A stretch of 64,000 nucleotides of DNA from NCBI GenBank assembly GCA_043797975.1, contig JAZDPC010000055.1, positions 11,518 through 75,517 on the forward strand. The letters run 5' to 3'. Position 1 is the first letter of the stretch, and the number at the start of each line of letters is the position of its first letter. The notes under the pieces are model-generated. The model did no database searches. It was given only the letters and a program-made list of their open reading frames with translations, and was not told the DNA's origin. The position numbers were made by a program, and so were the translations under genes. The stretch comes from Bacteroidota bacterium (lineage in GTDB: Bacteria > Bacteroidota > Bacteroidia > Bacteroidales > UBA12481). Of the stretch, positions 6,390-32,599 are shown piece by piece.

Positions 6390-6400
6390 TGAATCAAATT

Positions 6401-8901: not shown

Positions 8902-8961
8902 AAGTTAACGTTAGGGTGAAAGTATTGTCGAAGTTTTCAGAGCTTGTATCAACAGGCTTGG

Positions 8962-9573: not shown

Positions 9574-9617
9574 GGCTTTGATTTGATTACAAGTTTCACG
9601 CTTCCAGATGGCACCTG

Positions 9618-10241: not shown

Positions 10242-10328
10242 GGCCAAATTTACTATTTTAAACTCTGATGGCAGAAATGGAAAAGGATATAACTTTAACC
10301 AACCGGCGATAGTTAAAGGATTGTTGCT

Positions 10329-11078: not shown

Positions 11079-11166
11079 ATCTGATCCTTGTGATATTCGC
11101 TTATTTGTTTTAATGAGGGAGCCAACCGTGCAGACTATTTATCCGGCATTCGTTGCCTGATGCCCA

Positions 11167-13248: not shown

Positions 13249-13326
13249 CTGTTAAAAAGCACTCAATTTAGCGAATTGCCGCGGGATTCGTTAGCTTTGC
13301 CGCTTTTATGATCAATGAATTCTGAT

Positions 13327-14865: not shown

Positions 14866-14940
14866 GGAAACCCAGACCGAAAAATCAGCCTACGCCTGAC
14901 TGGTTTGGCCACCTTCCGCCAAACGAAGTGGTCAACGGGA

Positions 14941-16397: not shown

Positions 16398-16894
16398 ATT
16401 TCCAACCCTTTCATTTTTTCTGATAATCTTTGCCTGATCCTGAACAGCTTAACGCTTACATTTGATGTACTTATTCCCAGGATCCCGGCAATTTCCTCAT
16501 ATTTTTTCTCTTCAAGCCATAGCATGATGATAGCCTTGTCGATCTTGTTAAGCAGTGAAATAGCTTTATATAGCAATTGTATCTGTTCTTCCTTTTCGGA
16601 GTTATCCCTATCATCCTGTTGCTCCTGAAATTCTTCAACCGGAATAACAATGTTTTTTCTTTTCCTGATCTGGCTGACTGCGGTGTTGATGGCAACCCTG
16701 TACATCCAAGTGCTAAGCTGCGCTTCTTCCCTATAACTGCCATATGATCTCCAGAGTTGAAAGCATATGTCCTGAAAAAGATCTTCTTTATCTACCGGAT
16801 TATTGGTGTAAAGCCTTGAGACTTTGTGAATGATCCCGATGTTTTGTTCCAATAGATCCGCAAACTCTTTCTTATCAGACTTTTTATGCTTCAT
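16394..16894 (-). CDS. ECF RNA polymerase sigma factor
   Basis: EDLFQDICFQLW, STWMYRVAINTA and YEEIAGILGISTSNVSVKLFR. Confidence 0.92.
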   Translation of the reverse strand: MKHKKSDKKEFADLLEQNIGIIHKVSRLYTNNPVDKEDLFQDICFQLWRSYGSYREEAQLSTWMYRVAINTAVSQIRKRKNIVIPVEEFQEQQDDRDNSEKEEQIQLLYKAISLLNKIDKAIIMLWLEEKKYEEIAGILGISTSNVSVKLFRIRQRLSEKMKGLEI

Positions 16895-17162
16895 GTTATC
16901 CAATTTGTCGCAGAAGGTTCTGAAAAACTACAAGATGCAACAATTTTCAACAGTTTGATATTCCGCCAAAGTGAATTGTCGATTTTAAAATTACTTCCCA
17001 ACACCTGGCTTCAAGGTTTTGTAAAATTCTCTTTTCCAATGGTGTTTAAGTTCATGATTTTCTTAATTCCAATTGTGTTCTTGAAATTTTATTTCCATTT
17101 TCCAATAGTGATTGTGGTTCAGAATGGAAAAACAGTATACCTTTGGTGGAAAGTTTGGTGAT

Positions 17163-18527
17163 ATGAAAAGAAACCTGGAAAACTATCTCGTAGCCTGGAA
17201 GGATAGCCCCAAGCGAAAACCCCTGATAATAAGAGGTGCCAGACAAGTTGGTAAAACATTTATTATCAATGCATTTGGGAAAGCTCATTTTGAGCACTAT
17301 TTGTCTGTCAACCTGGAACAGGATCGCAAGTTGCAGACGGTTTTTGCAAGTAACAATCCTGAAATCATCATCAATGAACTGACCAGCCTGTATAACGTTC
17401 CGGTGATAGCTGGAAAAACATTACTGTTCGTTGATGAAATACAGGCTTCACCGGAGGCAATAGCATCATTGCGATACTTTTACGAACAAGCTTCGGATTT
17501 GCACATTATTGCCGCCGGGTCACTGCTTGATCACACGCTTAATGAGGTCAAGTATTCCATGCCGATCGGACGAGTGGAATATGCCTATTTGTATCCGCTC
17601 AATTTCATAGAGTTTTGCACCGCGCTTGGTGAAACCGGGCTATGCGATTATATAAGAAACTTCTCACCCGATAAAAATTTTAACGTGGCCATTCATTCCA
17701 GAATTGCTGATTTCCTGCGATTGTACTTTTTTATCGGTGGTATGCCGGAAGCCATACAAACCTATATAGATACCGGCAATTTAGTTGAAGTTGAAAAGGT
17801 CCATTCCAACATAGTAACCTCTCTGCAATACGATTTCGCAAAATATGGAACGCGGAAAGAACAGGATTTCCTGAAATTAGCGCTGCATTATGTTGCCAAC
17901 AATATCGGTCGGAAAGTAAAATATGTAAATATCGATCGAAATGCCCACTCTTCGCAGCTAAAAGAAGCGTTACTTAAGCTCGAGATGAGCAGGGTAATAC
18001 ATTTAGTGCGAAAAACCAAATCTGTTAATCCTCCTATTACACAGTATGTTGACAATGATACATTTAAGCCGGTTTTTATTGATATCGGACTTGCCAATCA
18101 CCTGGCGCAAATACGATTAGCCGATATCAAAAACTTATGCACCGATTTCGAAGGTGCCTTGGCAGAGCAGTTTGTCGGACAAGAGTTCATAGCTTCATCG
18201 TCTTTCTTCAAGGAAACAAAGCTGTATTATTGGATGCGCGAAGCAAAAAATTCCAATGCCGAGATCGATTATTTATTACAAATAGAAAACGAAATCTATC
18301 CTGTGGAAGTAAAAGCCGGTAAAACAGGAACACTAAAATCCCTGCAGGTTTTTTTGGGAACAGCTGACAAACAAACAGGCATTCGTTTTAACCTCGACCT
18401 GCCGAATTATGGCAACAGCTTACAGGCTGTCATCCGGGTAAATAGCCAAAACAGGTCCATTTATTATTCTCTTATTTCTTTACCGCTGTATTTTGCCGGT
18501 TTGATCGGCGGTATGAAATTAATGTGA
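17163..18527 (+). CDS. AAA+ ATPase (AAA_14) with DUF4143 / PD-(D/E)xK-like C-terminus
   Basis: GARQVGKT Walker A, LFVDEIQ Walker B, GGMPE and EIDY...PVEVKAG. Promoter TACCTTTG at 17138-17145. Confidence 0.88.
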   Translation: MKRNLENYLVAWKDSPKRKPLIIRGARQVGKTFIINAFGKAHFEHYLSVNLEQDRKLQTVFASNNPEIIINELTSLYNVPVIAGKTLLFVDEIQASPEAIASLRYFYEQASDLHIIAAGSLLDHTLNEVKYSMPIGRVEYAYLYPLNFIEFCTALGETGLCDYIRNFSPDKNFNVAIHSRIADFLRLYFFIGGMPEAIQTYIDTGNLVEVEKVHSNIVTSLQYDFAKYGTRKEQDFLKLALHYVANNIGRKVKYVNIDRNAHSSQLKEALLKLEMSRVIHLVRKTKSVNPPITQYVDNDTFKPVFIDIGLANHLAQIRLADIKNLCTDFEGALAEQFVGQEFIASSSFFKETKLYYWMREAKNSNAEIDYLLQIENEIYPVEVKAGKTGTLKSLQVFLGTADKQTGIRFNLDLPNYGNSLQAVIRVNSQNRSIYYSLISLPLYFAGLIGGMKLM

Positions 18528-18625
18528 GGTGTAATGGACACTTGCCCATCAGGATTTACGCTTCTCGCAAAATCAGGAAAAGTTTCGATGTGATCGAACA
18601 GATTCAGTCGGTTTTCAGAATTTCG

Positions 18626-18690
18626 TACCGACTGCGTGCCTGAACCTCCAAAACACAAAACCGATCTACTTGATTGACTGACAGGTCTCT
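18626..18690. mobile_element. att-like site A (degenerate)
   Basis: taccgactgcg-tgcctga, then caaaacacaaaaccgatctacttgatt...acaggt, homologous to sites at 21.8, 30.8 and 32.5 kb. Confidence 0.6.
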
Positions 18691-18757
18691 TATCCTTGTA
18701 GACGATTTGGCGGTCTCTAATAATTCTCGTTACCTTTAAGGATTGAATAGGTTTACC
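18691..18757 (+). promoter_or_regulatory. Shared promoter/operator motif, copy 1 (5'-truncated)
   Basis: atcc..gtagacgatttgg-N-tcgttaccttta...tgaataggttta. Confidence 0.6.
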
Positions 18758-18774
18758 ACTCTAAAACATAACCT

Positions 18775-21012
18775 ATGAACAGAGCCCGAATGTCCTTCCT
18801 GTTACTGGGTCTTTCCCTGAGTACTCTAGCCGGTTTCACCCAGCAATCCATTGTGATCCCGAAAGCCGCCTCAACCCCCAAACTCGATGGAAAGCTAGAT
18901 GACCCGGCCTGGCAGGGCATAAAACCCTTTACCATGATTTCCCTGAATCCGGCGGCAGGCTTGCCCCCCTTCCAGGAGACGGAAGTCAGGATGATTTATA
19001 CCGACCGCGATCTGTATGTGGGAGGCTGGCTGTTCGACAAGGAACCTGATGAAATCAGGGCAACCAGCAAGATCCGGGATGATATCGGGCTTACCAACGA
19101 CTGGTTCGCGATAGCGCTCGACACATACGTGGATAAAGAGAATGCCCTGATGTTTGCCACAAATCCGGCAGGTCTGAGGACCGATGCCCAGCTGTTCAAT
19201 GACGGGCAAGGATCTGGTCCAATGAAATCCGAATGGAACACGTTTTGGACGGTGGTTACAAGTAGGGACAGCAAAGGGTGGTACGCCGAGATGCAGATCC
19301 CCTTGTCGAGCCTCAGGTACCAGAAAACCGGAAACAAGGTGCTTATGGGACTTATGTTGTTCCGTTACATCGCGAGGAAGCAGGAGTGGGATGTTTATCC
19401 GCCTATCTCTAATGAATGGGGATTCTGGAGTTGGGCAAAAGCCTCCAAATATCAGCTTATTGAATTTGAAGGAATCGAAACGGTCAACCCGCTGTTTTTC
19501 GCACCCTATATTCTGGGCGGCTTTCAACAAAACGCAAAACTCAATGATGCGGGAGATTCTTATCGGTCAGAGTATACCTGGGCGAAAAATGCCGGGATGG
19601 ATGTCAAATACGGCTTGTCAAAGAACCTAACCCTGGATCTTACGCTTAACACCGATTTTGCACAGGTAGAAGCTGATGACCAACAGGTCAACCTTACCCG
19701 CTTCTCCCTCTTCTATCCCGAAAAACGACAGTTCTTCCTCGAAAGGTCACCCATCTTTGATGTTAGTTTCGGCGGCGGTGAACAGATATTCTACAGTAGG
19801 CGTATCGGTATATACAATGGCAATCAGGTCCCGTTGTGGGGAGGGGGAAGGTTGACAGGGCGCATCGGCGACTGGGACATCGGGGCCATGTCGCTGCAGA
19901 CAGGATTCCTCAGGGACGAAGAAACCCATGAAGAGATTTTGCCAACCCTCAATAATTCGGTACTGAGGCTGCGCCGGAAAGTAGGGATTAACAGCAATTC
20001 CTATATCGGGGGGATATCCACTCTTAAAATCGATCCGGCCGGAAATTTCAACTGGAATTACGCGTTCGACGCCATCATTAATACTTATAAAAACGATTAT
20101 CTGAATGTAATCTGGGCCCAGACGTTGGATTCCGATGAAAAGCCGATCAGTTTGTCGCTCCAAACGGCCAAGTTCATGGTCGATTACACGAGGCGCACCC
20201 AGGACGGATTATCCTACGATGTGAGTTTTTCCCGTTCCGGGGCACGGTATAACCCGGAACTGGGTTTCGAATTCAGACAGGATTATACAAATTTTGGAGC
20301 CTCGGCAGGTTACGGGTGGGATCTTGCCGACAAGCCCGGCTTTATCAATAAGCAAGCAATTTACCTTAGTACGTGGGATTATCTCAGGAATGATGACGGC
20401 AGGCTGGAGACTTTTAGTATTCATCCTTATTATAGCCTGGAGACCAAATCTATGCACGAATTTGGAACAGGAGCTGATATCCAGACTGAGAACCTGAGAG
20501 ATACCTTCTACCTGTCGGACAAAGTTTATGTTCCAGCCGGGAATTACCAGTTCACCAATGCATCTATAAGCTATTCAACACCTGAGTGGAAGGTATTTAC
20601 CGGAGGCATAAATATGTCGGCAGGGCAGTATTATGACGGCTGGATCAGTTCCTGCGCCCTTTCTCAAAACTTAAGATTTGCAAGCAGCTGGATTCTGGGG
20701 CTGACTTACCAGTTCAACAGGATCGGGTTTTCTGAAAGGGACCAGTTTTTTAACACTCACGTGGCTAAGTTCAAGGTTATCTATATGTTCGATACCCGAT
20801 GGACCGCCTCCAGTTACATCCAGTACAACAGCATGATCGACGGGATAATCTGGAATGCCAGACTACGATACAATCCCCGGGAAGGAGTTGATTTTTTTGT
20901 CGTTTACAATGATTTCATCAACACCGGCCGTCAGCGTTCGGAGCCTCCGCTGCCCTTCAGCCTTCAACGGACTTTGTTGTTGAAATTAACCTATACCTTA
21001 AGGGTTCGATGA
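18775..21012 (+). CDS. Exported CBM9-like + DUF5916 protein
   Basis: Signal peptide, PKLDGKLDDPAW, LDLTLNTDFAQVEAD and LFYPEKRQFFLE. Confidence 0.85.
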   Translation: MNRARMSFLLLGLSLSTLAGFTQQSIVIPKAASTPKLDGKLDDPAWQGIKPFTMISLNPAAGLPPFQETEVRMIYTDRDLYVGGWLFDKEPDEIRATSKIRDDIGLTNDWFAIALDTYVDKENALMFATNPAGLRTDAQLFNDGQGSGPMKSEWNTFWTVVTSRDSKGWYAEMQIPLSSLRYQKTGNKVLMGLMLFRYIARKQEWDVYPPISNEWGFWSWAKASKYQLIEFEGIETVNPLFFAPYILGGFQQNAKLNDAGDSYRSEYTWAKNAGMDVKYGLSKNLTLDLTLNTDFAQVEADDQQVNLTRFSLFYPEKRQFFLERSPIFDVSFGGGEQIFYSRRIGIYNGNQVPLWGGGRLTGRIGDWDIGAMSLQTGFLRDEETHEEILPTLNNSVLRLRRKVGINSNSYIGGISTLKIDPAGNFNWNYAFDAIINTYKNDYLNVIWAQTLDSDEKPISLSLQTAKFMVDYTRRTQDGLSYDVSFSRSGARYNPELGFEFRQDYTNFGASAGYGWDLADKPGFINKQAIYLSTWDYLRNDDGRLETFSIHPYYSLETKSMHEFGTGADIQTENLRDTFYLSDKVYVPAGNYQFTNASISYSTPEWKVFTGGINMSAGQYYDGWISSCALSQNLRFASSWILGLTYQFNRIGFSERDQFFNTHVAKFKVIYMFDTRWTASSYIQYNSMIDGIIWNARLRYNPREGVDFFVVYNDFINTGRQRSEPPLPFSLQRTLLLKLTYTLRVR

Positions 21013-21033
21013 TTCCGATGTCATAGTCTGGCT

Positions 21034-21113
21034 TCGATCAAATGGATTATCCAAATAGTCGATTTGTTAATCTGATTATTCTTCGTTACCTTTTAGGGAT
21101 GAATGGTTTATAC
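21034..21113 (+). promoter_or_regulatory. Shared promoter/operator motif, copy 2
   Basis: tcgatcaaatggattatccaaatagtcgatttg...ttcgttacctttt...tgaatggttta. Confidence 0.65.
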
Positions 21114-21150
21114 GGAAAATATTCAACCATGACAAATCAATATTCGTCAA

Positions 21151-21768
21151 ATGAAACCACAAAAAGTATCTGGCACATATCAGCAGACTCGTAGATCATT
21201 CCTGGCCATAAGCATACCTGCCTGCGCTTTTAGTTGCTTTGGACTGGCACAAAATGCACAGGCAACCGATTTGCCCGATGTGATTAAAAAGCAAGGGCAT
21301 AAGTTTGACAAAAAGGTTGGTTGGACTTACGAACAGGTTTATCAATTCAGAGCCAAGCTTTTTTCAGACAGGTTGAATCGGATTGCCGAACACCTGGGTC
21401 GTGAGAATGTTATTGAAGCCCTGAAGAAATCAACAGAAGATTACTACAAGTCTATTGCATCAAAAACTCCCGGGAGTTCCTTGCAGGATTTTGTTCAGCC
21501 ATTTTACAAAGATGAAGGTTATCGGGCTATCCTTACAATTGAAGTAATCGAAAATCGTGATGACTTTATATCCTGGAGGGTTACTGAATGCCTAAATGCC
21601 AAGGTATTCCGGAAGCTTGAAGCCGCCGACATTGGATATGCCACACTCTGCCATGGAGACGAAGCCTGGGCGAAAGCGTTTAACCCGAACATCACGTTTA
21701 GCCGTACTAAAACTCTTATGGAAGGTCATGATTGCTGTGACCACTGCTACATGATGTTAAAGGAATAG
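21151..21768 (+). CDS. ATC-hydrolase (L-2-amino-thiazoline-4-carboxylate hydrolase)/V4R-like protein with Tat-like signal
   Basis: TRRSFL twin-arginine leader and VTEC...LCHGD...RTKTLMEGHDCCDH. Confidence 0.75.
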   Translation: MKPQKVSGTYQQTRRSFLAISIPACAFSCFGLAQNAQATDLPDVIKKQGHKFDKKVGWTYEQVYQFRAKLFSDRLNRIAEHLGRENVIEALKKSTEDYYKSIASKTPGSSLQDFVQPFYKDEGYRAILTIEVIENRDDFISWRVTECLNAKVFRKLEAADIGYATLCHGDEAWAKAFNPNITFSRTKTLMEGHDCCDHCYMMLKE

Positions 21769-21792
21769 ATTCTTAGGCCAAGAGGGATATCA

Positions 21793-21871
21793 TTCCGGAC
21801 ATTTTGTGCCAAATACGTACCAGAAATGAAAAATAAAAAACTGATCTACTTGATTAACAGGTAGATCGGTT
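21793..21871. mobile_element. att-like site B
   Basis: ttccgg...tgccaaatacg-taccaga...aactgatctacttgattaacaggtagatcggtt. Confidence 0.65.
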
Positions 21872-21978
21872 AAATTCTTTTGGCCATCGATGCTCCAACC
21901 TATGGACATCCATGTCAATTTTAATCCCCTACTCAAATCCACCTGTCAAAGACAGGGACAATAGATTATAACCTAATT

Positions 21979-22058
21979 TCGATCAAATGAGATCATTTAA
22001 ATGACGATTTGGTGGTCTCAATATTTTTCGTTACCTTTTATCAATGAATGGTTTAACA
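21979..22058 (+). promoter_or_regulatory. Shared promoter/operator motif, copy 3
   Basis: tcgatcaaatgagatcatttaaatgacgatttgg...ttcgttacctttt...tgaatggttta, giving TTTG-N20-TAnnTTT spacing. Confidence 0.65.
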
Positions 22059-22084
22059 TAAATAATTTTTCAAAGCTGCCCACA

Positions 22085-23368
22085 ATGAATAAACTTAGTT
22101 ATCTAACTCTTGTACTTCTGACAATTACACTTGGATTCCGGAACAATCCGAATTCTGATTTGCAGTCAAATTATGGTCATGTTATTCCTGTCTCCAAACC
22201 TGAAAAAGTAGGACTGTCATCAGACCGTTTAAATCGAATAAAACCTTTCATGCAGAGGTACATTGATGAAAACAAGATTCCGGGCATGATTACCCTGGTA
22301 GCGCGTCACGGGAAAATTGTCCATTTTGAAAAGTATGGAATGATGGATACCGATAAGCCCATGCAGTTCAATACTATTTTTGCCATTAAATCAATGACCA
22401 AGCCTGTTGTTAGTGTCGCTGCAATGATGCTTTATGAGGAAGGCTGTTTTCAATTAGACGATCCTGTTGCCAAATATATTCCGGAATTTAAGGACCTTAA
22501 GGTCTTTTCATACAAAGATAAAGATGGAATTCATCTGGAAGATCAGAAAAATCCAATGACGATACACGATCTTCTTACTCATACCTCCGGACTGTCTTAT
22601 GGTTGGTATGGGAATACCGTGGATTCTATTTACCGGGCAGCAAATATCTTTGAAGGAACCGTGAAAGACATGATACAAAAGTTATCCAAGATCCCTCTTT
22701 TATTTCAGCCTGGTACAAAATTTAATTACAGTGTTTCAACCGATGTCTTAGGTTATCTGGTGGAGATTATTTCCGGCAAATCATTAGATATTTTTTTACA
22801 GGAGCGAATTTTTACTCCGCTAAAAATGACAGATACCGGTTTTTATGTCCCTAAAGAAAAGATAGATCGATTTGCAGCTTTATACAGTGTTACTGACAAT
22901 GGATTTAAAGTCATAGACAAACCGGAATCAAGCAAAATGACGAAACCACCGACACGCCTTTCAGGTGGTGGCGGGCTTGTATCAACTGCATCTGATTATC
23001 TGATCTTTGCCCAAATGTTGTCGAATAAAGGAGAATTTAATAGCACACGTCTCCTGGGCACTAAAACTGTCGAATTAATGACCCAAAATCATCTTTCTGA
23101 AGAATTGATACCTATTGGCATTGAACGTTTTGGAAAATTCAATGGATATGGATTCGGTTTAGGTTTTGCCATTATGGTAAATAATATCAATTCTCATATA
23201 TCAGGTTCAGATGGTGAATACGGTTGGTTTGGCATTAATAATACTTATTTCTGGATTGATCCCACCGAGGAATTAATATGGATTCAATTGGGACAATACC
23301 AGCCGGCTGGTTATTATCCGATCAATAAAGAATTCAAGGTACTGGTTTATCAGTCAATCATTGATTAA
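22085..23368 (+). CDS. Exported serine hydrolase (class C beta-lactamase/esterase family)
   Basis: SMTK (SxxK), LLTHTSG, FQPGTKFNYS and SGGGGL motifs, with a signal peptide from ATG 22085. Confidence 0.88.
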   Translation: MNKLSYLTLVLLTITLGFRNNPNSDLQSNYGHVIPVSKPEKVGLSSDRLNRIKPFMQRYIDENKIPGMITLVARHGKIVHFEKYGMMDTDKPMQFNTIFAIKSMTKPVVSVAAMMLYEEGCFQLDDPVAKYIPEFKDLKVFSYKDKDGIHLEDQKNPMTIHDLLTHTSGLSYGWYGNTVDSIYRAANIFEGTVKDMIQKLSKIPLLFQPGTKFNYSVSTDVLGYLVEIISGKSLDIFLQERIFTPLKMTDTGFYVPKEKIDRFAALYSVTDNGFKVIDKPESSKMTKPPTRLSGGGGLVSTASDYLIFAQMLSNKGEFNSTRLLGTKTVELMTQNHLSEELIPIGIERFGKFNGYGFGLGFAIMVNNINSHISGSDGEYGWFGINNTYFWIDPTEELIWIQLGQYQPAGYYPINKEFKVLVYQSIID

Positions 23369-23496
23369 TTGAGTCTTGTATATTCGATGAGGACGACAAC
23401 TTGAAAAATCGAACAACCAAGATTTGACCATAATAATGACCTGTTCATTTGAGGACCTCAGGGCGATGAATAGCCGAAAGAAAACATGATGAAAAT

Positions 23497-24411
23497 CTAT
23501 TTCCCGGAAAGTTCCTGGTAAACCATAGTGACAAAAGCCCGGGCCATCTTGTCCATTTTTTTACGTAATCCTTGCAGAGGTTCTGTGTTAATAATCTCAT
23601 CAAGAGTTTTTCCTTCCTTCATCAGGGATACTATCCTTTCTCTTTCGATTGATAACATTTCTCCATATTCCAATAAAGCCTGCCGGTTGGATACCGGTCC
23701 ATGACCGGGAATAATTATAGTCTTGTCATCACATTGATTATAAAGCTTTTTTACCGCAGAAATATATCCGTCAATCGATCCTCCTTTATACTTATCCAAA
23801 AGAGGCAACCCTGCAGGCAGGAACAAATCTCCGGTAAAAAGAATATTGGCATTTCCCATATAACAGATTGCATCACTGCCTGAATGAGCCTTTGTATAAT
23901 TATTACATCTGATTACATCATCATTAAAATAAATGTTCAATGAGTCGTGAAAGCAAATCATCGGTAAGTATTCAAATGAAAAAGGAGGAGTGACGGGTAC
24001 TTTTATCCCGCCGATTTCAGGCAAATCCAATGCAACCGTCATCCATTGTCGGGTGCTGTCATGAGCCAGAATGATTGCGCCATTTTCAGCCAGTTTTTTA
24101 TTTCCTCCGACATGGTCAAAATGAAAGTGGGTATTGAAAACATATTTCACCGGCAAATCTGAGATAGTCGAGATGACGGAATCGGTTATTTCAGAATTTT
24201 CTGACATTCCTGTATCAATGATCAACAGGCCTTCTTTCCCGACAATGACTCCTATATTGCAGCCGAATTTAGTGATCATAAAAATTCCCTTCGATACTTC
24301 CTTGACTCCAGGTGATGGTCTGGCAGGTTCCTGTGATAATGTCAGGTTACTGATAGAAAGAAAATAAATGGCCAGTAACCACATGTGAGGTATTGCTTTA
24401 TTAGGTTTCAT
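23497..24411 (-). CDS. Exported MBL-fold hydrolase (cyclase-like)
   Basis: NTHFHFDHVGGN, AHSGSD, FTGD and IPGHG. The start could be as far upstream as 24459. Confidence 0.82.
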   Translation of the reverse strand: MKPNKAIPHMWLLAIYFLSISNLTLSQEPARPSPGVKEVSKGIFMITKFGCNIGVIVGKEGLLIIDTGMSENSEITDSVISTISDLPVKYVFNTHFHFDHVGGNKKLAENGAIILAHDSTRQWMTVALDLPEIGGIKVPVTPPFSFEYLPMICFHDSLNIYFNDDVIRCNNYTKAHSGSDAICYMGNANILFTGDLFLPAGLPLLDKYKGGSIDGYISAVKKLYNQCDDKTIIIPGHGPVSNRQALLEYGEMLSIERERIVSLMKEGKTLDEIINTEPLQGLRKKMDKMARAFVTMVYQELSGK

Positions 24412-24607
24412 GATTTTAGAGCTAACAGTCATTTCATATAAAGTTATTCCATTAATCATGTGCTGCCAAAAAAAGTCAGGGAAATCAAAAAACGATCAGA
24501 ATGAGCCAATAATTTAATGTGTGTCCAAATTTAAACGAACACCAACCCACACTCCCCTCCAAATCCTGACGATGGACAATTTTTGTAACCCAAATTCTAG
24601 ACCAATA

Positions 24608-24687
24608 TCGCTCAGATGGATCATCCATAAAGACGATTTGGTTTTCTACGGTGAATCCACTATCTTTTTGTTATGAAAGATCTAAAT
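24608..24687 (+). promoter_or_regulatory. Shared promoter/operator motif, copy 4
   Basis: tcgctcagatggatcatccataaagacgatttgg...tatctttt. Confidence 0.6.
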
Positions 24688-24708
24688 TATTAAATAAATA
24701 ACCGAAAC

Positions 24709-25587
24709 ATGATGAAATCATCCCGTTTAACCATTGTTACTGCCGTATTCCTGTTGCTTTGCGCAAACCTGATGCAGGCACAGACACAACCTGCCACGGC
24801 ACCAGCCTGCCTGATGAATACCGAGCAGTTTTGGTTGACCTCAAAAAATATGGAAGGTGAAAATTACCTCATCCAGGTCAGCCTGCCTTATGATTATGCC
24901 ACCTCGGGATTATCGTATCCTGTCCTCTATTTCCCGGATGGTGATGTGGCGTTCGGATTGATAAAGGGAATTGTTGACATGCTGCAGATCGGCCAAAATA
25001 ACAGGGATATTATTGTTGTGGGTATAGGTTACGGCCAGGGTTTCAACACTTGGGCAACAAAAAGAACGAGGGATTTGTCACCTGACAGGGATACCGGTGC
25101 CTTTGCCAGGCAATTCAAGGACCTGGGATGGGCCGATAAATTCATCAGGTTCATGAAGGATGAATTGTTTCCCGTGGTCAATAAGAACTACCGGACAATT
25201 CCCGATTCCTGCGCCATCAGCGGAGGTTCATTCAGCGGATTGTTCAATTCATACGTTTTGTGCACGCAACCTGAATTATTCAAGGGATATATCATTTTCT
25301 CTCCCTCATTGGAATGGAACAACCAAAGCATACTGAAATATGAAAGCGAATATTTCAAGAACCATAAAGAGCTGAATTGCAAAGTTTTTATTGGCTATGC
25401 CTCGCGTGATATTCCGGCATCAATGGAGCCGATCAAAGAGTTTATCCGTGTGCTTCAGATGCATGACTATCAGGGGCTCGAGCTTTCAACGCGTGTATTT
25501 GAAGGAGAGACTCACCTTTCAGTCCCATCCTTCGCCCTGACCACAGGACTGAAAACTTTATTCTGGCCCGTAGACCGCTGGAGATAA
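24709..25587 (+). CDS. Exported alpha/beta hydrolase (IroE-like esterase)
   Basis: YPVLYFPDG, VVGIGY, RTRDLSP, GGSFSG nucleophile elbow and GETH. Confidence 0.82.
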   Translation: MMKSSRLTIVTAVFLLLCANLMQAQTQPATAPACLMNTEQFWLTSKNMEGENYLIQVSLPYDYATSGLSYPVLYFPDGDVAFGLIKGIVDMLQIGQNNRDIIVVGIGYGQGFNTWATKRTRDLSPDRDTGAFARQFKDLGWADKFIRFMKDELFPVVNKNYRTIPDSCAISGGSFSGLFNSYVLCTQPELFKGYIIFSPSLEWNNQSILKYESEYFKNHKELNCKVFIGYASRDIPASMEPIKEFIRVLQMHDYQGLELSTRVFEGETHLSVPSFALTTGLKTLFWPVDRWR

Positions 25588-25612
25588 TGTCAATGTACAA
25601 ACAATAACCACC

Positions 25613-26107
25613 ATGAAAACAATTCGTTTAACCGCACTGATTGGAGCCTGCATGATACTCTGCATTTGTGGATGCACTTCAAAACAGGGAGACCAATTGA
25701 CAGAAAAGCAAAAAGAACAAATCAAGAAAGAAATAATAACCGTTTACGATAGTATTTTTAGCAAGCTCGAAAAGCTGGATGTTGAGCAATCTTGTCAATA
25801 TTACACACCCGATTGCATGGTTTTTGGTTCTGATGGAGAGCAAACCTCTTTTCAGGACTATAAGAAATGGGGTATTGATGTCTACAAGTCAGCCACTTCA
25901 TACAAATGGATTTCATCAGGTCCGGTCTTCATATCCATTACCAGAGATGTCGTCCTCATTTCCCTGGATGGAAGGAACGAAACCCTGATGAATTCGGGAA
26001 AAATGTTTGTTACCGAACCATCTCACTATACCTGGGCCTTTAAGAAGACCAATGGTCAATGGAAACTGTTCTATCACCATTTTTCTGGCGCATTCCTGAA
26101 TAAGTAG
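25613..26107 (+). CDS. NTF2/SnoaL-like lipoprotein
   Basis: Lipobox-like ICGC and C-terminal YTWAFKKTNGQWKLFYHHFS. Confidence 0.75.
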   Translation: MKTIRLTALIGACMILCICGCTSKQGDQLTEKQKEQIKKEIITVYDSIFSKLEKLDVEQSCQYYTPDCMVFGSDGEQTSFQDYKKWGIDVYKSATSYKWISSGPVFISITRDVVLISLDGRNETLMNSGKMFVTEPSHYTWAFKKTNGQWKLFYHHFSGAFLNK

Positions 26108-26140
26108 GCTGAAAACATCGGGAATTGATTTACCCATAAA

Positions 26141-26167
26141 GTTCTGTACCTTTGAGAGTAATGACCT
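26141..26167 (+). promoter_or_regulatory. TACCTTTG promoter in the leader shared with 1105-1131
   Basis: 27-bp match with one mismatch. Confidence 0.7.
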
Positions 26168-26179
26168 GAATGTTAGACT

Positions 26180-28240
26180 ATGTCATCAGTTCTGCCCGGT
26201 TTCGAATACGACATCTTCATCAGCTACCGCCAGAAAGACAACAAGTATGACGGATGGGTAACGGAATTTGTCGATCACCTGAAGAAAGAGTTGGAAGCCA
26301 CATTCAAAGAAGATATCAGCGTTTATTTCGATATCAACCCGCATGACGGACTGCTGGAGACCGATGACGTGCATGAGTCCTTGAAATCTAAGCTGAAATG
26401 CCCGGTTTTTATCCCGATCATTTCCCGCACTTACTGCGATCCGAAATCATTTGCATGGGAGCATGAGTTCAGGGCATTTGTTGAACAGGCTTCACGGGAT
26501 CAATTCGGACTGAAAGTCAAGCTGCCCAATGGCAATGTGGCGAGCCGGGTGCTCCCGATTCGTATTCACGACCTGGATACCCTTGATATTAAAGAATGTG
26601 AATCAATTCTGGGAGGAGTGCTGCGTGGAATTGAATTTATCTACAAAGAACCCGGAGTGAACAAACCACTCACCACCGATGACGAAGAAAAGAAGAACCT
26701 GAATAATACCAAATACCGGATACAGATCAACAAGGTGGCCAATGCCATTAAAGAGATTATTTCAGGATTGAAAAGAGAGCCGACAGAATCTGCCGTTGAA
26801 CCAAAAGAAGTTCCCTTGTTAAATGATCGACCAGTTTTAAACGAGAAATCGATTATAGTTCTGCCATTTGAGAACATAAGTCCTGATCCGGATCAGGAGT
26901 ACTTTAGTGATGGCCTTACAGAAGAACTCATAACAGACCTTTCGCAAATCCATGATCTTCTGGTTATATCGAGAAGCTCAGCTATGACCTTTAAAGGAAC
27001 AAAAAAGAAAATTGGGCAAATAGCTAATGAGGTGAATGTGCAATATGTCCTGGAAGGAAGTGTAAGGAAAGCCGGAAATAATCTTCGTATCACAGCACAG
27101 TTGATAGACGGAACAACTGATACACATATATGGGCGGAAAAATATAATGGAAATCTTGACGATGTTTTTGATATTCAGGAAAAAGTCTCACACTCGATAG
27201 TAGATTCACTTAAATTAAAACTCTCTCCTGAAGAAGACCAAAACATTATTTTTAGACCTATTCAAAACATTACAGCATATGACTGCTATCTGAAGGCCAG
27301 GCAGAGTTTTTGGTCATGGGATAAAGAAGCCTTGAATCGTGCTGCCCAATTGCTTGAAAACGGTTTGGAAATAACCGGGGACAATGAATTCATTTATGCT
27401 GGTTTGGGATATGTTAATTGGCAGATTTTCAATTATGGTTTTGTACCAGAATTTTACTTACTTAATAAGGTACAGGATTACGTAAATAAGATTTTTAAAA
27501 TTGACAGCAATTCTCCATTAGGATTCAGACTACTCGGATTGATAGCAATATTTAAAGAATCCTTGCAAAAAGCTTGTTATTATTTTAAAAAGGATTTAGA
27601 GGTTGATCCCAATGACTCAGAGGCATTAGTGTGGTATTCCATGTGCCTGATCTATTCCGGGAAGACGGAGGAAACCAGATCATTAATAAACAGACTTCAA
27701 AAGATTGATCCGCTTACCTGGATAAATCATGCTGTATTAGGCTTACTTTTAATCATTGAAGGGGATTATAACGGGGCACTCAAACAATCTGAGAAAATAT
27801 TTTCCATGGAACCCGGTAATCCGTACCTCAAATTTAGTTATGCATATTGTCTGGCATATAATAAATCTTATAAGAAAGCATATGAATTATTTGACGAAGC
27901 AGCTATTGAGGGGAAAGACTTTTATGTGGGCTCTTTGAGCAAATTTGTAAAGCATGCTTTCCGAAATGAGAAAGCAAAAGCTTTAATGTCAGTAACCCAA
28001 GAGCTAAAAAAGAAATCTGAAAATGATTTTGAAATAGCCTGGCAAATGGCAGAATGTTATTCAATGATGAACGAGAAGCGGCTAGCCCTTGATTGCATTG
28101 AATATGCTATAAACCGTGGAGTGATAAATTACCCGTTTTTGGCAGAAAAAAATCCTTACCTCCTTAATATCCGTGGCGAGGAACGGTTTAAAAAGTTAAT
28201 GGAACGGGTCAAAAATGAATGGGAAAACTTTAAAGTTTAA
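26180..28240 (+). CDS. TIR-like + TolB_N-like + TPR protein (no TM helix, cytoplasmic)
   Basis: Same TIR N-terminus, then KSIIVLPFENISPDPDQEYFSDGLTEE and VLEGSVRKAGNNLRITAQLID (TolB-like), then TPRs. Confidence 0.8.
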   Translation: MSSVLPGFEYDIFISYRQKDNKYDGWVTEFVDHLKKELEATFKEDISVYFDINPHDGLLETDDVHESLKSKLKCPVFIPIISRTYCDPKSFAWEHEFRAFVEQASRDQFGLKVKLPNGNVASRVLPIRIHDLDTLDIKECESILGGVLRGIEFIYKEPGVNKPLTTDDEEKKNLNNTKYRIQINKVANAIKEIISGLKREPTESAVEPKEVPLLNDRPVLNEKSIIVLPFENISPDPDQEYFSDGLTEELITDLSQIHDLLVISRSSAMTFKGTKKKIGQIANEVNVQYVLEGSVRKAGNNLRITAQLIDGTTDTHIWAEKYNGNLDDVFDIQEKVSHSIVDSLKLKLSPEEDQNIIFRPIQNITAYDCYLKARQSFWSWDKEALNRAAQLLENGLEITGDNEFIYAGLGYVNWQIFNYGFVPEFYLLNKVQDYVNKIFKIDSNSPLGFRLLGLIAIFKESLQKACYYFKKDLEVDPNDSEALVWYSMCLIYSGKTEETRSLINRLQKIDPLTWINHAVLGLLLIIEGDYNGALKQSEKIFSMEPGNPYLKFSYAYCLAYNKSYKKAYELFDEAAIEGKDFYVGSLSKFVKHAFRNEKAKALMSVTQELKKKSENDFEIAWQMAECYSMMNEKRLALDCIEYAINRGVINYPFLAEKNPYLLNIRGEERFKKLMERVKNEWENFKV

Positions 28241-28254
28241 AATCAATTTGCGAT

Positions 28255-30588
28255 ATGGCAAGTTTGATTCCCGGTTTCGAATACGACATCTTCATTAGCT
28301 ACCGCCAGAAGGACAACAAAGGCGATGGTTGGGTGACTGAGTTTGTCGAGGCTTTGAAAACGGAGCTGGAAGCCACCTTCAAAGAGGATATCAGCGTTTA
28401 TTTTGATGTCAACCCGCATGACGGACTGTTAGAGACCCATGATGTGGCAGCCTCGCTTAAAGAGAAGCTGAAGGCCCTTGTTTTCATCCCGATCGTTTCC
28501 CGCACCTACTGCGATCCCAACAGCTATGCTTGGGAGCATGAGTTCGTCGCGTTTATCGAACAGGCCTCGCAAGACCGGTTCGGACTGAAGGTGAAGCTGC
28601 CCGGCGGAAATGTAGCCTCCAGGGTATTGCCTATCAGGATTCACGATCTTGAACCGGAAGACATCAAACTGGCTGAAAGCTACCTCGGGTTCATCCGGCC
28701 GGTGGATTTTATCTACCATTCCCAGGGAGTCAACCGCCCGTTGCGGCTAAGGGATGATGACCTGGCCAAGCCCAGCCAGCAGTTGGTATACCGGGATCAG
28801 ATCAACAAGGTGGCCAATGCCATTAAAGAGATCATCAACGGATTGATAATGGGGGCGGCCGCACCGGAGAAGGAAAAGATTCCGTCTGGTGAGCCATTCG
28901 ATGATGTTTCATTCGTTAAGAAAGGTGAAGAAAGTAAAGAACCAGAAAAAATGAAATCTTCCCTGTTAATCAGGCGGAAGCCTTTACTCTGGACAGCAGC
29001 GATTGGTATTTTGGTGATAATTGCTGCAATCCTGACTTATCCGAAGATATTCAACAGGAGTACGCCTGATAAACTGCAATCATCAGATGGAAAGATATCC
29101 GTTGCAGTGATGCCGTTCCGGAACATGACCAATGACACTACCTGGAACGTCTGGCAGGATGGGATTCAGAATCTCCTGATCACCTCTCTGTCGAACTCCG
29201 GTGAATTAAAAGTCAGGCAACCCGAATCAATCACAAGTTTGCTGGAAAGCAAAGGCATTACCGATTATGCCTCCATCACACCTTCGGCAGCAAGCTCAAT
29301 TTCACAGAAACTGGATGCCGATGTTTTCATCTATGGCAGTATAAACCAGGCCGGTGGCACCATACGTGTCAATACACAATTAATTGACTCAAAAACGGAG
29401 GAAATCGTTAAATCCTTACAAATGGAGGCTCCTTCCGGAGAACAGATGATATTTCACATCACCGATACACTTTCAGAAATGATTAAAAACCATATTCTGA
29501 TAACAGAATTATCCAGGGAGCAATCCTATGAAACACAGCAATCCATAACAACCAACTCCCCTCAGGCTTACAGGTATTTGATCTATGGAAAAAAATCTTT
29601 CAATAACCGGGATTATGCAACTGCAAGAAGCTGGTTTCAGCAGGCAATCGCTGCAGACTCAAACCTGACAATTGCCGCCATTTTTATTGCCATTTCATAT
29701 TCAAACCAGGGATTATATGAACCGGGAAGAAAATGGTGCCTGCGGGTTTACGAAAAAAAAGACTCAACGCCATTAGAATTAAAGCTCCTGATTTATTGGT
29801 TATATGCTGTTTATTTTGAAACACCCCACGAACAGGTTGCCTATCTGAAACAACTGCTGGAAATGGATGATTACAGGCCTCTGATCAATTATATCATTGG
29901 TGACAGTTACTCTGAATTACACCAGTATGATAAAGCAATCCCCAGTTTTGAAAAAGCGCTGGAATTACGAAATGAATGGGGCTTGAAACCGACCTGGATT
30001 TACAATTATACCGAATTGGGCAAAGCCTATCACAAGACGGGAATGTTTAATAAAGAGAAAACATTATATAAAAAAGCTGAAAAGGATTTTCCGGATGATC
30101 CGGTGCTACTGTACAATCAGGCGGTATTGTCATTAACTGAAAAAGATATGGCCCCTGCAGATCGCTATATTGAAAAGTACATGTCTGCCCGTAAGTGGAA
30201 TTCCGTCCCAGAGGCAACCATACTGACCGGGGTGGCCTCTATTTATTCTGACGCCGGAATTCCGGATAAAGCGGAAAATTATTACCGGCAGGCTTTAACC
30301 TTAGAACCTGATAATTCATTGATATTGAATAATCTGGCCTTTTTCCTGATCGACCTGGACCGGAATATTGATGAAGGGTTGGTTCTTGTGAACAAGGCGT
30401 TGGAATTAAGCCCGGATGATCACTACTGTCTGGATACCAGGGGCTGGGGACTATATAAACAAGGGAAATATCAGGAAGCACTGGCATTTCTTGAAAAAAG
30501 CTGGAAGCTGAAGCCTGTTTATGATCATGATATTTTTGTCCACCTGCAGGAAGTAAGAAAGGCACTGGCGGGTCAGAAAAAGAATTGA
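28255..30588 (+). CDS. TIR-like + TM + TolB_N-like + TPR protein
   Basis: The first ~200 aa are nearly identical to 1144-3489. It has TM LLWTAAIGILVIIAAILTY, VAVMPFRNMT and TPRs. Confidence 0.8.
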   Translation: MASLIPGFEYDIFISYRQKDNKGDGWVTEFVEALKTELEATFKEDISVYFDVNPHDGLLETHDVAASLKEKLKALVFIPIVSRTYCDPNSYAWEHEFVAFIEQASQDRFGLKVKLPGGNVASRVLPIRIHDLEPEDIKLAESYLGFIRPVDFIYHSQGVNRPLRLRDDDLAKPSQQLVYRDQINKVANAIKEIINGLIMGAAAPEKEKIPSGEPFDDVSFVKKGEESKEPEKMKSSLLIRRKPLLWTAAIGILVIIAAILTYPKIFNRSTPDKLQSSDGKISVAVMPFRNMTNDTTWNVWQDGIQNLLITSLSNSGELKVRQPESITSLLESKGITDYASITPSAASSISQKLDADVFIYGSINQAGGTIRVNTQLIDSKTEEIVKSLQMEAPSGEQMIFHITDTLSEMIKNHILITELSREQSYETQQSITTNSPQAYRYLIYGKKSFNNRDYATARSWFQQAIAADSNLTIAAIFIAISYSNQGLYEPGRKWCLRVYEKKDSTPLELKLLIYWLYAVYFETPHEQVAYLKQLLEMDDYRPLINYIIGDSYSELHQYDKAIPSFEKALELRNEWGLKPTWIYNYTELGKAYHKTGMFNKEKTLYKKAEKDFPDDPVLLYNQAVLSLTEKDMAPADRYIEKYMSARKWNSVPEATILTGVASIYSDAGIPDKAENYYRQALTLEPDNSLILNNLAFFLIDLDRNIDEGLVLVNKALELSPDDHYCLDTRGWGLYKQGKYQEALAFLEKSWKLKPVYDHDIFVHLQEVRKALAGQKKN

Positions 30589-30773
30589 TCTCCTGAACTT
30601 CCCGTTAAAACATGACCAGGACAAATTCTGAAAACCCTCAGAATTTTAAAATAGAGTTTTTATGAATAACAATTCCTTCCAGGGCTTCATAAGGCGGCAC
30701 AGGAATAAGGAGTTGTTCAAAATTTATGGCAATTATTCAAGGCCCTTTCGGCCACTACCTCCACTAGCACAAT

Positions 30774-30872
30774 TTCCGGCAAAACTTGCCAAATACTTGC
30801 CAAAACCCCAAAAACACAAAACCGATCTAATTGATTAACAGGTAGATCGGTTCTAAAAATCGAGGTCACAAG
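30774..30872. mobile_element. att-like site C ending in an 11-bp copy of the tRNA-Cys 3' end
   Basis: ttccgg...tgccaaatact-tgccaa...aaccgatctaattgattaacaggtagatcggtt-N9-gaggtcacaag. The last 11 bp match 32528-32538. Confidence 0.75.
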
Positions 30873-31005
30873 TGTTCTTAATTCACTGATTTTCATTAAC
30901 TTGAATTGATTTTGGCTGAAATGATCTACAACTTTTAAGGAAGGCTACAAAAAAAGTAAGGCTTCAAGGAAAACTTGTTTTTGCATTTTCAAAAACTGAT
31001 TCTCC

Positions 31006-31356
31006 TTATTTCCTTAAAATTTCCTCCAATGTCTTTCCTTTTGCCAATTCATCAACCAACTTATCCAAACAACGAACCTTTTGCATGAGTTTGTCTTCGA
31101 TTTCTTCCACACGATAACTGCAAATTACACCCGTGATTTTTGAAACATTGGGATTGATTTTTGGTGCTTGTGCGAAAAAAGTTTCAAAATCACTTTTGTT
31201 GTCAATGTGTTGCTGCAATGTCAGTTTATTATATCCTGTCAACCAAAAAACAATTTCATCTACTTCCGCTTTTGTGCGTCCCTTTTTCTCCGCTTTTTGA
31301 ATATACAACGGATAAACACTTGCAAACGACATTTTAAAGACTCTCATATTGTCCAT
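31006..31356 (-). CDS. DUF2200 family protein
   Basis: MSFASVYPLYIQKAEKKGRTKAEVD...WLTGY...ITGVIC...LDKLVDELAKGK. Confidence 0.9.
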   Translation of the reverse strand: MDNMRVFKMSFASVYPLYIQKAEKKGRTKAEVDEIVFWLTGYNKLTLQQHIDNKSDFETFFAQAPKINPNVSKITGVICSYRVEEIEDKLMQKVRCLDKLVDELAKGKTLEEILRK

Positions 31357-31452
31357 TTTGGTTGTTATTGATCTTCAAATTTATCTAAAAGTTGGTTGTT
31401 TCAGGCAGGGTAGCTGATTACTGCCCCAGAATACCCGGCTCGTACGGTCAAG

Positions 31453-32208
31453 TCAGCCGATTAGGGCAGCCAATCCTGGGATGACATATATCACAAGATC
31501 GGTAATAAGATGAGCCATAATGGCTGATACGAGACCGTACCTCATGAATAACCACCCCAGGATCATTCCGGTGCTGGTGCTGGACACAACGAAGGTAAAC
31601 AACAGACTCAAGCCATATTGTTGAAGCTCCAGTTGGGGGAAATGGGCAGCGGCAAATACAAGGGCGGACAGCAGGTTTCCAATCCAAAGTGACGGTGTAT
31701 GAACAGCGGGGCTCTTGACAACTGACCGAATGATCCAAACAAATATACTCATCAAACCAAACCGGAAAGCTATCTCTTCCGTCAATGCCGCGCTGAGGCA
31801 TCTGAGAAGCCGCTCGAAGGTGTTCGGATTATTCAACTCCGGAATCAACACATCCTTCGGCATCACATTCTGGCTGATGAGTCCGACTGTGCCCAGTGCT
31901 AGTCCAACCAGCGTCCCGGGCACGAGAGCCAGGCTCACTTGCTTCCAGTATCCGGGCGTTCCTGAGACAAGCTCCCTCAATCCTGATCCCAAGCCTGCTT
32001 TCTTGCCAAGCCATACTCCTACCGCCGCCGAGGCTGGTATGAAAAAGAGAAAGTCTATTGCACCCTCCCACCACCACCCCGTTTCGGGATTGTCTCTGAG
32101 AACAGCAATGGTCCAAGGCAAGCCCATCAGGACTCCAAACCAGCCGACGAAAAGCACCCATATGAAGAGTACTTTATCGGTTCTCGCACTTACCACTGCA
32201 TCGTTCAT
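31453..32208 (-). CDS. CPBP (CAAX/Abi) intramembrane glutamic endopeptidase
   Basis: EEIAFR, FAAAH and AIMAH motifs with multiple TM helices. Confidence 0.85.
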   Translation of the reverse strand: MNDAVVSARTDKVLFIWVLFVGWFGVLMGLPWTIAVLRDNPETGWWWEGAIDFLFFIPASAAVGVWLGKKAGLGSGLRELVSGTPGYWKQVSLALVPGTLVGLALGTVGLISQNVMPKDVLIPELNNPNTFERLLRCLSAALTEEIAFRFGLMSIFVWIIRSVVKSPAVHTPSLWIGNLLSALVFAAAHFPQLELQQYGLSLLFTFVVSSTSTGMILGWLFMRYGLVSAIMAHLITDLVIYVIPGLAALIG

Positions 32209-32439
32209 ATTTGAAGGATTTTGTATTTCCTACAAAGAGTTGTCGTTTTTCAGGAGTTTCCAGGTAAAATTAACCCCTATCGTGATATTTCTTGATTATT
32301 TGGTGGGAAAAACGTACTTGTTGATTAGTCCCCGCCGAATAGAATTGACCAGTCGCTGATCATCTGGTTCGGCGGAAGGTGTTGAACTTGCCCCGGCGAT
32401 GACTGATTTTTTTGTTGGCGCGTGCACCTACTCCACAGG

Positions 32440-32538
32440 TTCCGGAACGTTTTATGCCAAGTGCATGCCAAAAAAGGAAAATCTATAACCGGACTACCTG
32501 ATAATCAGGAAGTCCGGTTATAGATTTGAGGTCACAAG
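32440..32538. mobile_element. att-like site D fused to the tRNA-Cys 3' end (the hairpin may double as a terminator)
   Basis: ttccgg...tgccaagtgca-tgccaa...aatctataaccggact-acctgataatcagga-agtccggttatagatt-tgaggtcacaag. Confidence 0.75.
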
Positions 32539-32599
32539 CGGATTCGAACCGCTGTAGCCGGTTTTGCAGACCGGTGCCTAACCACTTGGCTATGTGACC
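32529..32599 (-). tRNA. tRNA-Cys (GCA)
   Basis: Reverse complement GGTCACATAGCCAAGTGGTTAGGCACCGGTCTGCAAAACCGGCTACAGCGGTTCGAATCCGCTTGTGACCT shows a 7-bp acceptor stem, a GCA anticodon, a TTCGA T-loop and a U discriminator. Confidence 0.97.

Follow-up and report, generated by a model that had tools for sequence, protein, structure and literature searches.

Elements that integrate at the same attachment (att) site can be stacked there one behind the other, and such site-specific tandem accretion is described for the cis-mobilizable elements (CIMEs) of the ICESt1/ICESt3 family in the sections of PMC5704250 that deal with them. Among the islands at the ssrA gene of Dehalococcoides, 15 are without an integration module according to the portion of PMC3146451 concerned with them, and insertion by the integron integrase IntI is treated in part of PMC8138268. 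Arrays of integrase-less units anchored at a tRNA gene are common, and the enzyme is usually missing. In this study we analysed a stretch of 64,000 nucleotides (the window) from contig JAZDPC010000055.1 of the Bacteroidota bacterium assembly GCA_043797975.1, order Bacteroidales, which carries an array of this kind at a tRNA-Cys gene; the host assembly, labelled G000, comprises 3.0 Mb and is 73% complete. Accretion and CIMEs have already been published, the array described here is unusually cassette-like, and a literature search, mostly of open-access texts without supplements, returned no account of this Bacteroidales array or of the repeat, termed B, which it contains. The definition of both element ends, of the core and of a candidate integrase in full length makes it testable whether units of this kind still act as live cassettes or have become dead remnants.

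We consider it likely that small, mostly non-autonomous elements were inserted serially at the 3' end of the tRNA-Cys gene by a Bacteroidota tyrosine integrase, which is known from relatives and was not found in the assembly. Each element has a P-end (a TGCCAA pair, an A-tract, a hairpin and the core) toward the tRNA and a distal end of type A or type B, the latter being the 7-bp core followed by a 100-150-bp repeat with a promoter consensus at its end. With every new insertion the older elements would be moved farther from the tRNA, and an internal site is then an older P-end connected by the core to the distal end of the element that follows. Autonomous members carry their integrase gene just behind a type A end; the cargo-only members, however their genes may first have been captured, would depend on the presence of an autonomous relative for excision and insertion, its integrase binding the repeats. 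As a junction erodes, the core and the P-end go first, whereas the promoter part of B stays, probably because it drives a cargo gene. In this account the anatomy, the position of the integrase gene, the variable cargo and the units common to several species are observed, and the remainder (integrase binding, present-day mobility, promoter and terminator activity, gene capture) is inferred.

Tandem P-ends behind the tRNA-Cys gene

An initial annotation of the window had reported four homologous att-like sites in the same orientation, and a profile recovered all four (Table 1) with E-values of 7e-24 to 2e-16 in the 3.0-Mb assembly, the next best match elsewhere having an E-value of 0.033; the profile was built with sites of relatives, and the four window sites were themselves in the training set. 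As judged from its anatomy, each site is the P-end of an integrative element and faces the tRNA gene. The TGCCAA-like repeats with 11-bp period are present at the two tRNA-proximal sites (30787/30798 in P-end 2) and degenerate at 21807 and 18637, and TTCCGG, which had been counted as a further feature of the sites, is not conserved in relatives. The two proximal sites do end in the tRNA 3' sequence GAGGTCACAAG, at 30862 and 32528, and these are its only two exact copies in the assembly. From the tRNA outward, the cores are intact, intact, lost, and lost together with the right hairpin arm, so the decay with distance that had been noted holds for the completeness of core and hairpin and does not hold for the profile score (66, 85, 61 and 64 bits). 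P-end 1, nearest the tRNA, is a diverged variant with compensatory stem changes and not the best-scoring copy.

The hairpin is also supported by covariation. In the alignment 89% of cells pair, and double-sided changes occur in 27 cells, whereas shuffles gave 7.9 and slid controls no more than 7; this count is inflated by related sequences and refers to a structure taken from the consensus. The hairpin probably doubles as the terminator of the tRNA-Cys gene. A sigma-70 promoter and terminator scan of the window gave results at chance level (34 vs 31 and 14 vs 13.8, respectively), Bacteroidetes promoters being outside its model.

The intervals between the P-ends of the window are 1,666, 8,996 and 3,174 bp and hold 2, 6 and 2 genes, in agreement with the 2 to 6 cargo genes per segment given earlier, and a Pfam scan of these 10 cargo open reading frames (ORFs) found no integrase domain, as the initial annotation had also stated. 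Both ends of element 1 (30862-32538) retain the 11-bp core, and the cores of the two outer elements are lost. The GC content per kb at 18,000-32,000 is 36-50%, that of the assembly 48%.

A fifth, decayed site suspected near 24461 was missed by the profile, and its ungapped matrix score was background, no better than that of 7,677 other positions of the genome. The TGCCAAA at 24461 can also be read as the -33 box of a promoter that serves the metallo-beta-lactamase-fold gene on the minus strand, although the position directly precedes a B copy and a P-end is expected there.

P-ends and units in relatives

Of the family genomes examined, 12 of 18 have a P-end adjoining tRNA-Cys, as against 0 of 11 genomes from other families, with different flanks each time; G007, whose contig ends at the tRNA, is excluded from this count. 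With a 35-nt P-end pattern, 16 of the 29 family genomes were positive (29 matches in all), whereas no match was obtained with the reversed control. Locus L090 was left out of the junction and interval counts because it duplicates G009. Across 50 P-ends, the sequence that follows is the tRNA (14), a type A end (14), the head of B (6), the tail of B (1), a third motif, C (5), or other sequence (10). The 19 intervals between P-ends measure 760-9,786 bp and contain 1-8 genes, with an integrase in one of them, and in 13 of 27 cases the P-end begins at most 35 nt from a same-strand stop codon. Seven P-ends lie within 20 kb in G016. The relatives thus support the earlier reading of the sites as att-type ends of mostly small, integrase-less elements at the 3' end of tRNA-Cys, and the cargo downstream of this gene, which differs among relatives, is where common often bounded by these ends.

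Some units are common to several species. A HEPN-MNT unit was found in five genomes of three genera, in differing contexts and with type A or type B ends: including its type A end it is 80-89% identical over about 945 bp in G016, G017 and G021, and in G020 it has a B end instead, the P-end lying within 20 nt of the stop codon in both G016 and G020. Units bounded by full P- and distal ends occur in G016, G017, G014 and G008, and in integrase-less units with both full ends the cargo starts about 30 nt past the distal arm pair. A metagenome scan yielded 9 loci, 6 of which duplicate genomes already in the comparison set, and viral contigs held no exact match to either motif.

Arrays also stand behind tRNA-Ser(CGA) in G006 and G009, with repeat C at the tRNA and with P-ends and B copies in addition, which argues that units or ends have passed between the two tRNA islands. 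Repeat C is 175 bp long, and Cys-type P-ends stand right before it five times in the counted loci (L075 and L100, i.e., G006:C1 150,900-172,400; L111, i.e., G009:C40); a group II intron reverse transcriptase lies behind one C copy of these arrays.

The tRNA-Cys gene is probably a target for more than one kind of element. Four additional family genomes have a repeat pair other than that of the P-end at tRNA-Cys, so that several element families appear to target it. At least four other repeat pairs (GGACAA, GTGGGG, TGGCCAA and GTCGGGAAA) were seen behind tRNA-Cys within the family (loci L008, L009, L017, L020, L087 and L104), and their variety suggests that several integrase families may use the one target. 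Two contigs of G014 overlap at tRNA-Cys and then diverge into different element ends (L048:13112-13217 and L104:290-395), which may reflect strain variation or a tandem arrangement.

Distal end and candidate integrase

The distal end and the promoter repeat were absent from the initial annotation. Internal cores in relatives are followed by a type A end, conserved over 154 bp, which consists of the core, about 120 bp of further sequence and a second TGCCAA pair at its finish. Measured against the E. coli consensus for the binding site of integration host factor (IHF), a similar box is exact in 4 of the 15 type A ends, and 6 of 15 come within one letter of it.

The 15 type A ends are followed by a tyrosine integrase gene in three cases, by other genes in 11 and by a contig end in one. 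A tyrosine recombinase beside a matching site had been anticipated, and it was found in three congeners, in full length in G008 and G009 (72% identical to each other) and with its N-terminal part interrupted in G013. The candidate integrase passes the Pfam cut-offs for its SAM_5 and catalytic domains and is of the SAM_5, phage-like type, and the residues R271, K299, H372, R375, H398 and Y407 are invariant across 9 homologues. A further integrase, that of G023, is 48-52% identical; the core and the arm pair ahead of it are variants, and both match the tRNA-proximal site of the congeneric G020. More distant homologues often have a repeat pair of their own shortly ahead of the gene. The Arm-DNA-bind_5 cut-off was passed by 3 of 7 scanned homologues, the match being weak in G023.

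Homologues at E<=1e-70 were present in 3 genomes only, in a sample of 401 genomes of the order, a scan of genome contigs with the integrase as query returned G008 itself only, and no solved structure matched the integrase by sequence. No relaxase was found in the scanned ORFs of G008 and G009, which are only part of their ORFs, the boundary of the G009 element being undefined. The proposal of an integrase acting in trans is borne out as far as a matching enzyme exists in relatives, and a resident copy was not found in the window's own genome (73% complete) or in those complete or near-complete congeners that have arrays. Because no close copy was found in these array-bearing genomes, the enzyme is probably a visitor rather than a resident.

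As candidates for a resident helper, the PF00589 matches of the assembly were considered and rejected; they comprise two proteins of Xer size, an integrase at tRNA-Pro, one of tRNA-Val type whose repeat pair differs, and a fragment, and none of them is close to the candidate. A separate island at about 43,900-62,950 of G000:C51 (L004, L005) encodes a tyrosine integrase of 397 aa, intact and preceded by a tRNA-like fragment with the repeat pair TTGCAACC; the same pair also stands behind tRNA-Val(GAC), 18 kb off, beside an integrase fragment. In L003 (G000:C28) a tyrosine integrase lies right behind tRNA-Pro (600-2053), and a short ORF between tRNA-Ser and tRNA-Pro has GT-rich and AC-rich inverted tracts at its flanks.

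Repeat B and its predicted promoter

Repeat B, which is 100-150 bp long, ends in TTTG-N19-21-TAnnTTT, the primary promoter pattern of Bacteroidetes with its usual box spacing. The pattern TTT[GA]-N19-21-TAnnTTT[ATG] is found in 25 of 28 B tails, and a same-strand ORF comes next in 27 of 28. The consensus follows PMC7366714. Four copies lie in the window, and the assembly holds one weak extra B-like match, on C40. B has the same orientation as the P-ends in 36 of 36 matches, and the 21 genes right behind it represent 18 families. B is a predicted promoter common to many of the cargo units. It occurs in 13 of 29 family genomes (model) and in 1 of 301 genomes of the order (pattern); nine copies lie in 13 kb in G014, and in the complete genome G018 five of seven matches lie 39-134 kb behind tRNA-Cys.

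The full-length repeat begins right after the 7-bp core of the P-end, GAGGTCA being exact in 4 of 7 heads and matching in 5 of 7 letters in a fifth, and the next four letters of the tRNA are kept in 0 of 7; one further such head was seen outside this count. Within the window the junctions form an erosion series, i.e., an intact core with a truncated type A end, a decayed core with a full B, a P-end fused to a B tail, and a B tail alone. Between the -33 and -7 boxes (window 22008-22025 and other copies) B contains TTG-GTGGTCT-CAA, an inverted triplet around 7 bp, 8 of 10 letters of which equal the tRNA core.

A B-bounded unit of G005 and G014, ending about 10 nt past B, is 97.8% identical over 2,072 bp, in comparison to 82.9% for the housekeeping flanks, and the two genomes also have in common a one-gene unit running from B to B, in differing contexts. 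In four genomes the sequence upstream of B is in common and the genes downstream are unrelated. B copies thus appear to serve as crossover points at which the downstream gene is swapped. The four window copies did not fold better than shuffles (z -1.2 to +1.7) and have no strong stem-loop terminator, and a link of B to the conserved upstream repeats of Bacteroides was not found in PMC4145004 or by the literature search.

All of these features could be drawn into one picture, which is speculative and which we hold to be doubtful as a whole. A gene between the portable promoter B and a P-end would be a self-expressing cassette; a visiting tRNA-Cys integrase would cut, insert and reorder such cassettes through the cores of their P-ends, even without a distal arm pair; TTG-N7-CAA of B may be a second crossover site; and cassettes would move between species and between the arrays at tRNA-Cys and tRNA-Ser. 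If B is indeed a portable promoter and a crossover point, it would explain how foreign genes are expressed and reshuffled in a Bacteroidales lineage where no integron integrase was found, and if the units are inert, the locus would be an ordinary decayed island.

Alternative explanations

The main alternative is that the array consists of dead scars, left when large integrase-bearing elements inserted in tandem and shrank by random deletion, with turnover limited to RecA recombination at B and ordinary island replacement and with no integrase acting on small units. Such a history matches the three-step origin of CIMEs as set out in part of PMC5704250, and it is consistent with the interrupted integrase of G013, with SDH in G008 where G009 has SGH, with the breakpoints in B between genomes, and with the many ends that are truncated at variable points. 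We nevertheless think it unlikely, since integrase-less units retain both full ends with cargo and P-end tightly placed, one mini-unit (HEPN-MNT) stands at different array positions in several genera, and the heads of B join the P-ends exactly past the 7-bp core in most of the heads compared. A true integron, or a cluster of attC sites lacking an integron integrase (CALIN), in which a resident IntI would act on the hairpins as attC sites in their folded single-stranded form, would also show co-oriented sites with a covarying hairpin repeated between small gene units. The attC site spans about 55-140 bp and has the palindrome R''-L''...L'-R', whereas the hairpin here spans 33 bp from AAC to GTT and has no RYYYAAC/GTTRRRY boxes (alignment by inspection). 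IntI was below the cut-off in the window's own genome (TIGR02249, best 78.7 of 265 bits; 73% complete) and was not found at E<=1e-30 in 5 genomes, in a search without a positive control, and the sites bear a tRNA 3' core and arm-type pairs, the adjoining enzyme being the phage-like integrase of SAM_5 type. This explanation is therefore highly improbable, and because the sites are not like attC and no IntI passes the cut-off, the word integron-like, used in the initial annotation, holds as an analogy only. Hardly credible, finally, is a plain terminator or a repeat of the repetitive extragenic palindromic (REP) type, with B as the mere common promoter of co-regulated genes. A hairpin with an A-tract at the terminator position of the tRNA, as at many other tRNAs of this genome, and the promoter consensus at the end of B would fit it, but the four P-ends and the four B copies are all within one 14-kb stretch of the assembly, not scattered genome-wide like a dispersed repeat, a distribution that refutes this explanation for the P-end. 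The P-end further holds a copy of the tRNA core and arm pairs that recur before an integrase gene, and B, with its length, is lineage-restricted, concentrated in tRNA islands and fused in register to P-ends.

Several results weigh against serial insertion by an integrase known from relatives. Element 1 alone has two intact cores, and its distal arm pair is lost, so the array of the window may now be fixed. The integrases of G008 and G009 gave no Pfam match to an arm-binding domain. The best match to the candidate integrase in the assembly is 22-27% identical, and in the complete G018 or in G006, G016, G014 and G005 it is 26-31%, so that mobilisation, should it still take place, requires a visitor, itself unobserved. 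The ten P-end junctions that continue into other sequence are unexplained, and the relatives are not independent, most of their assemblies being fragmented. Neither an excised circle nor an empty site nor a strain variant of the window was seen; the sole sequencing run found was an uninformative RNA run with a word share of 0.05, which matched other organisms and whose joints lay between TIR-TPR paralogues and none at the sites. As for B, a P-end was present within 110 nt upstream in 3 of 31 B bodies only, so that for most copies the tie to integration is one that we infer, the TGCCAA pair is absent from it, and among the elements with a B end none with an integrase was encountered. On the tRNA strand the P-end hairpins were not called by the terminator scan.

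Cargo and neighbouring features

The features of the array are collected in Table 1. Further Rfam matches in the window (miRNA, lncRNA) were rejected as chance, the tRNA alone passing. Three paralogues with a TIR-like N-terminus and a TPR C-terminus lie in the window, at 1144-3489, 26180-28240 and 28255-30588, and a five-gene cluster of their relatives, with PADLOC TIR matches, stands behind a P-end in G014 (L074). Homologues of several genes at 66-17,000 occur in the tRNA-Cys regions of relatives, so the variable region probably reaches more than 30 kb past the array; no P-end or B was detected in this part, left of the last site. The 63-nt repeats at 14017-14409, in a leucine-rich repeat protein with a type IX secretion tail, are ordinary coding repeats; such tails are consistent with a member of the Bacteroidales.

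Table 1. Features of the tRNA-Cys array, in window coordinates and ordered from the tRNA gene outward
Feature	Position	Strand	Evidence or remark
tRNA-Cys(GCA), target gene; its 3' end is the source of the core	32529..32599	-	ARAGORN; Rfam RF00005, 68.7 bits
P-end 1: arm pair 32455/32466, A-rich spacer, hairpin 32479-32527 with 24-nt arms, core GAGGTCACAAG 32528-32538	32440..32538	+	66 bits; fold z -7.5
CAAX/Rce1-like protease, cargo of element 1	31453..32208	-	PF02517
DUF2200 protein, cargo of element 1	31006..31356	-	PF09966
Truncated distal end of element 1 (first 75 of about 154 positions): core copy, IHF-like box 30879-30891; second arm pair lost	30862..30936	+	36 bits, E 8e-9 in genome
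P-end 2, complete, 11-bp core intact	30772..30872	+	84.6 bits
TPR protein; conserved N-terminal region, TIR-like in paralogue	28255..30588	+	Pfam scan
TPR protein; weak N-terminal TIR_2 match	26180..28240	+	TIR_2 E 0.002, below cut-off
SnoaL-like protein	25613..26107	+	PF13474
Putative esterase, right behind B copy	24709..25587	+	PF00756
Repeat B copy, ending in promoter-like box TTTG-N20-TAnnTTT (24637 onward)	24514..24676	+	68.7 bits
Suspected fifth site; possibly P-end remnant or minus-strand gene promoter	24460..24500	.	no statistical support
Metallo-beta-lactamase-fold hydrolase, probable start 24411	23497..24459	-	49% identical to cargo gene in array of G014
Beta-lactamase-family serine hydrolase, probable start 22085, right behind B	22001..23368	+	PF00144
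Full-length repeat B: head hairpin, body, promoter-like box at 22008; joins P-end 3 at core position	21880..22047	+	B model
P-end 3, core decayed	21794..21876	+	60.5 bits
ATC-hydrolase-like protein; stop 24 nt ahead of P-end 3	21151..21768	+	PF14196
B tail (3' part), promoter-like box at 21063	21023..21103	+	46.7 bits
DUF5916/CBM9-like protein, behind B tail	18775..21012	+	Pfam scan
B tail fused to truncated P-end 4, promoter-like box at 18706	18692..18747	+	34 bits
P-end 4, without right hairpin arm and core; likeness to sites of relatives runs left to 18561	18612..18702	+	64.3 bits
AAA_14-DUF4143 ATPase, probable cargo of older element; left boundary not found	17112..18527	+	PADLOC candidate PDC-S01

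Comparison with known systems

A close parallel is given by the CIMEs, which, in the account contained in part of PMC5704250, are likewise integrase-less members with attL and attR and with chimeric att junctions between neighbours. Element 1 is bounded by cores of the target gene and the four relatives mentioned above have units with full ends, the 10 cargo ORFs of the window include no integrase or transfer genes (Pfam scan; no systematic transfer-gene search was made), and G008 and G009 provide autonomous relatives with the same att ends. As for an origin by decay, the integrase of G013 is decaying, yet precise minimal units recur across genera. The array differs from CIMEs in that its units, with standard ends, go down to 0.76-1.5 kb and recur across genera, and in that a promoter-bearing repeat stands ahead of many cargo genes.

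With the Dehalococcoides islands, as far as the relevant portion of PMC3146451 describes them, the array has in common the target 3'-end repeats within about 100 kb downstream, the mixture of integrase-bearing and integrase-less islands, and the older regions losing their signatures; those islands rely on a serine recombinase module and tmRNA, whereas the array here involves a tyrosine integrase, tRNA-Cys, arm-type pairs and smaller units. The tycheposons of Prochlorococcus, in the part of 10.1101/2020.12.28.424599 that introduces them, are similar in that transient integrase-bearing elements seed tRNA islands, newcomers push older elements inward and partial tRNA copies remain. Unlike in tycheposons, there are no replication or packaging hallmark genes among the window cargo, and most units are cargo-only. 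The candidate integrase resembles the NBU1/NBU2 enzymes and the IntCTnDOT subgroup of tyrosine recombinases, which, according to sections of PMC8138268 and PMC5704250, are found in Bacteroidota, combine a SAM_5 domain with a catalytic domain and act on elements that have arm-type repeats near their ends and the 3' part of a tRNA gene as target. The differences are that the target is tRNA-Cys, that no relaxase was among the ORFs scanned and that the arm-binding domain passes Pfam only in homologues.

The nearest analogues of B are intergenic modules that recur with a promoter ahead of accessory genes and act as points of gene shuffling. The promoter early stem-loop (PeSL) regulatory cassettes of T4-type phages are such modules in the portion of PMC2839356 devoted to them, and so, reportedly, are the conserved upstream (CUP) repeats of IncN plasmids. 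B matches PeSL in its predicted consensus promoter and not in having a stem-loop terminator, and it differs further in lying in a bacterial chromosomal tRNA island, in being joined to att ends at the core and in having no significant overall fold.

Integrons and CALINs, in general, consist of small gene units that are ordered, point the same way and have the most recent arrival at one end, and in this respect the locus is like them. Unlike integrons and CALINs, it has no IntI and no attC geometry, and it combines a predicted promoter of the cassette's own with a tRNA gene as the entry site.

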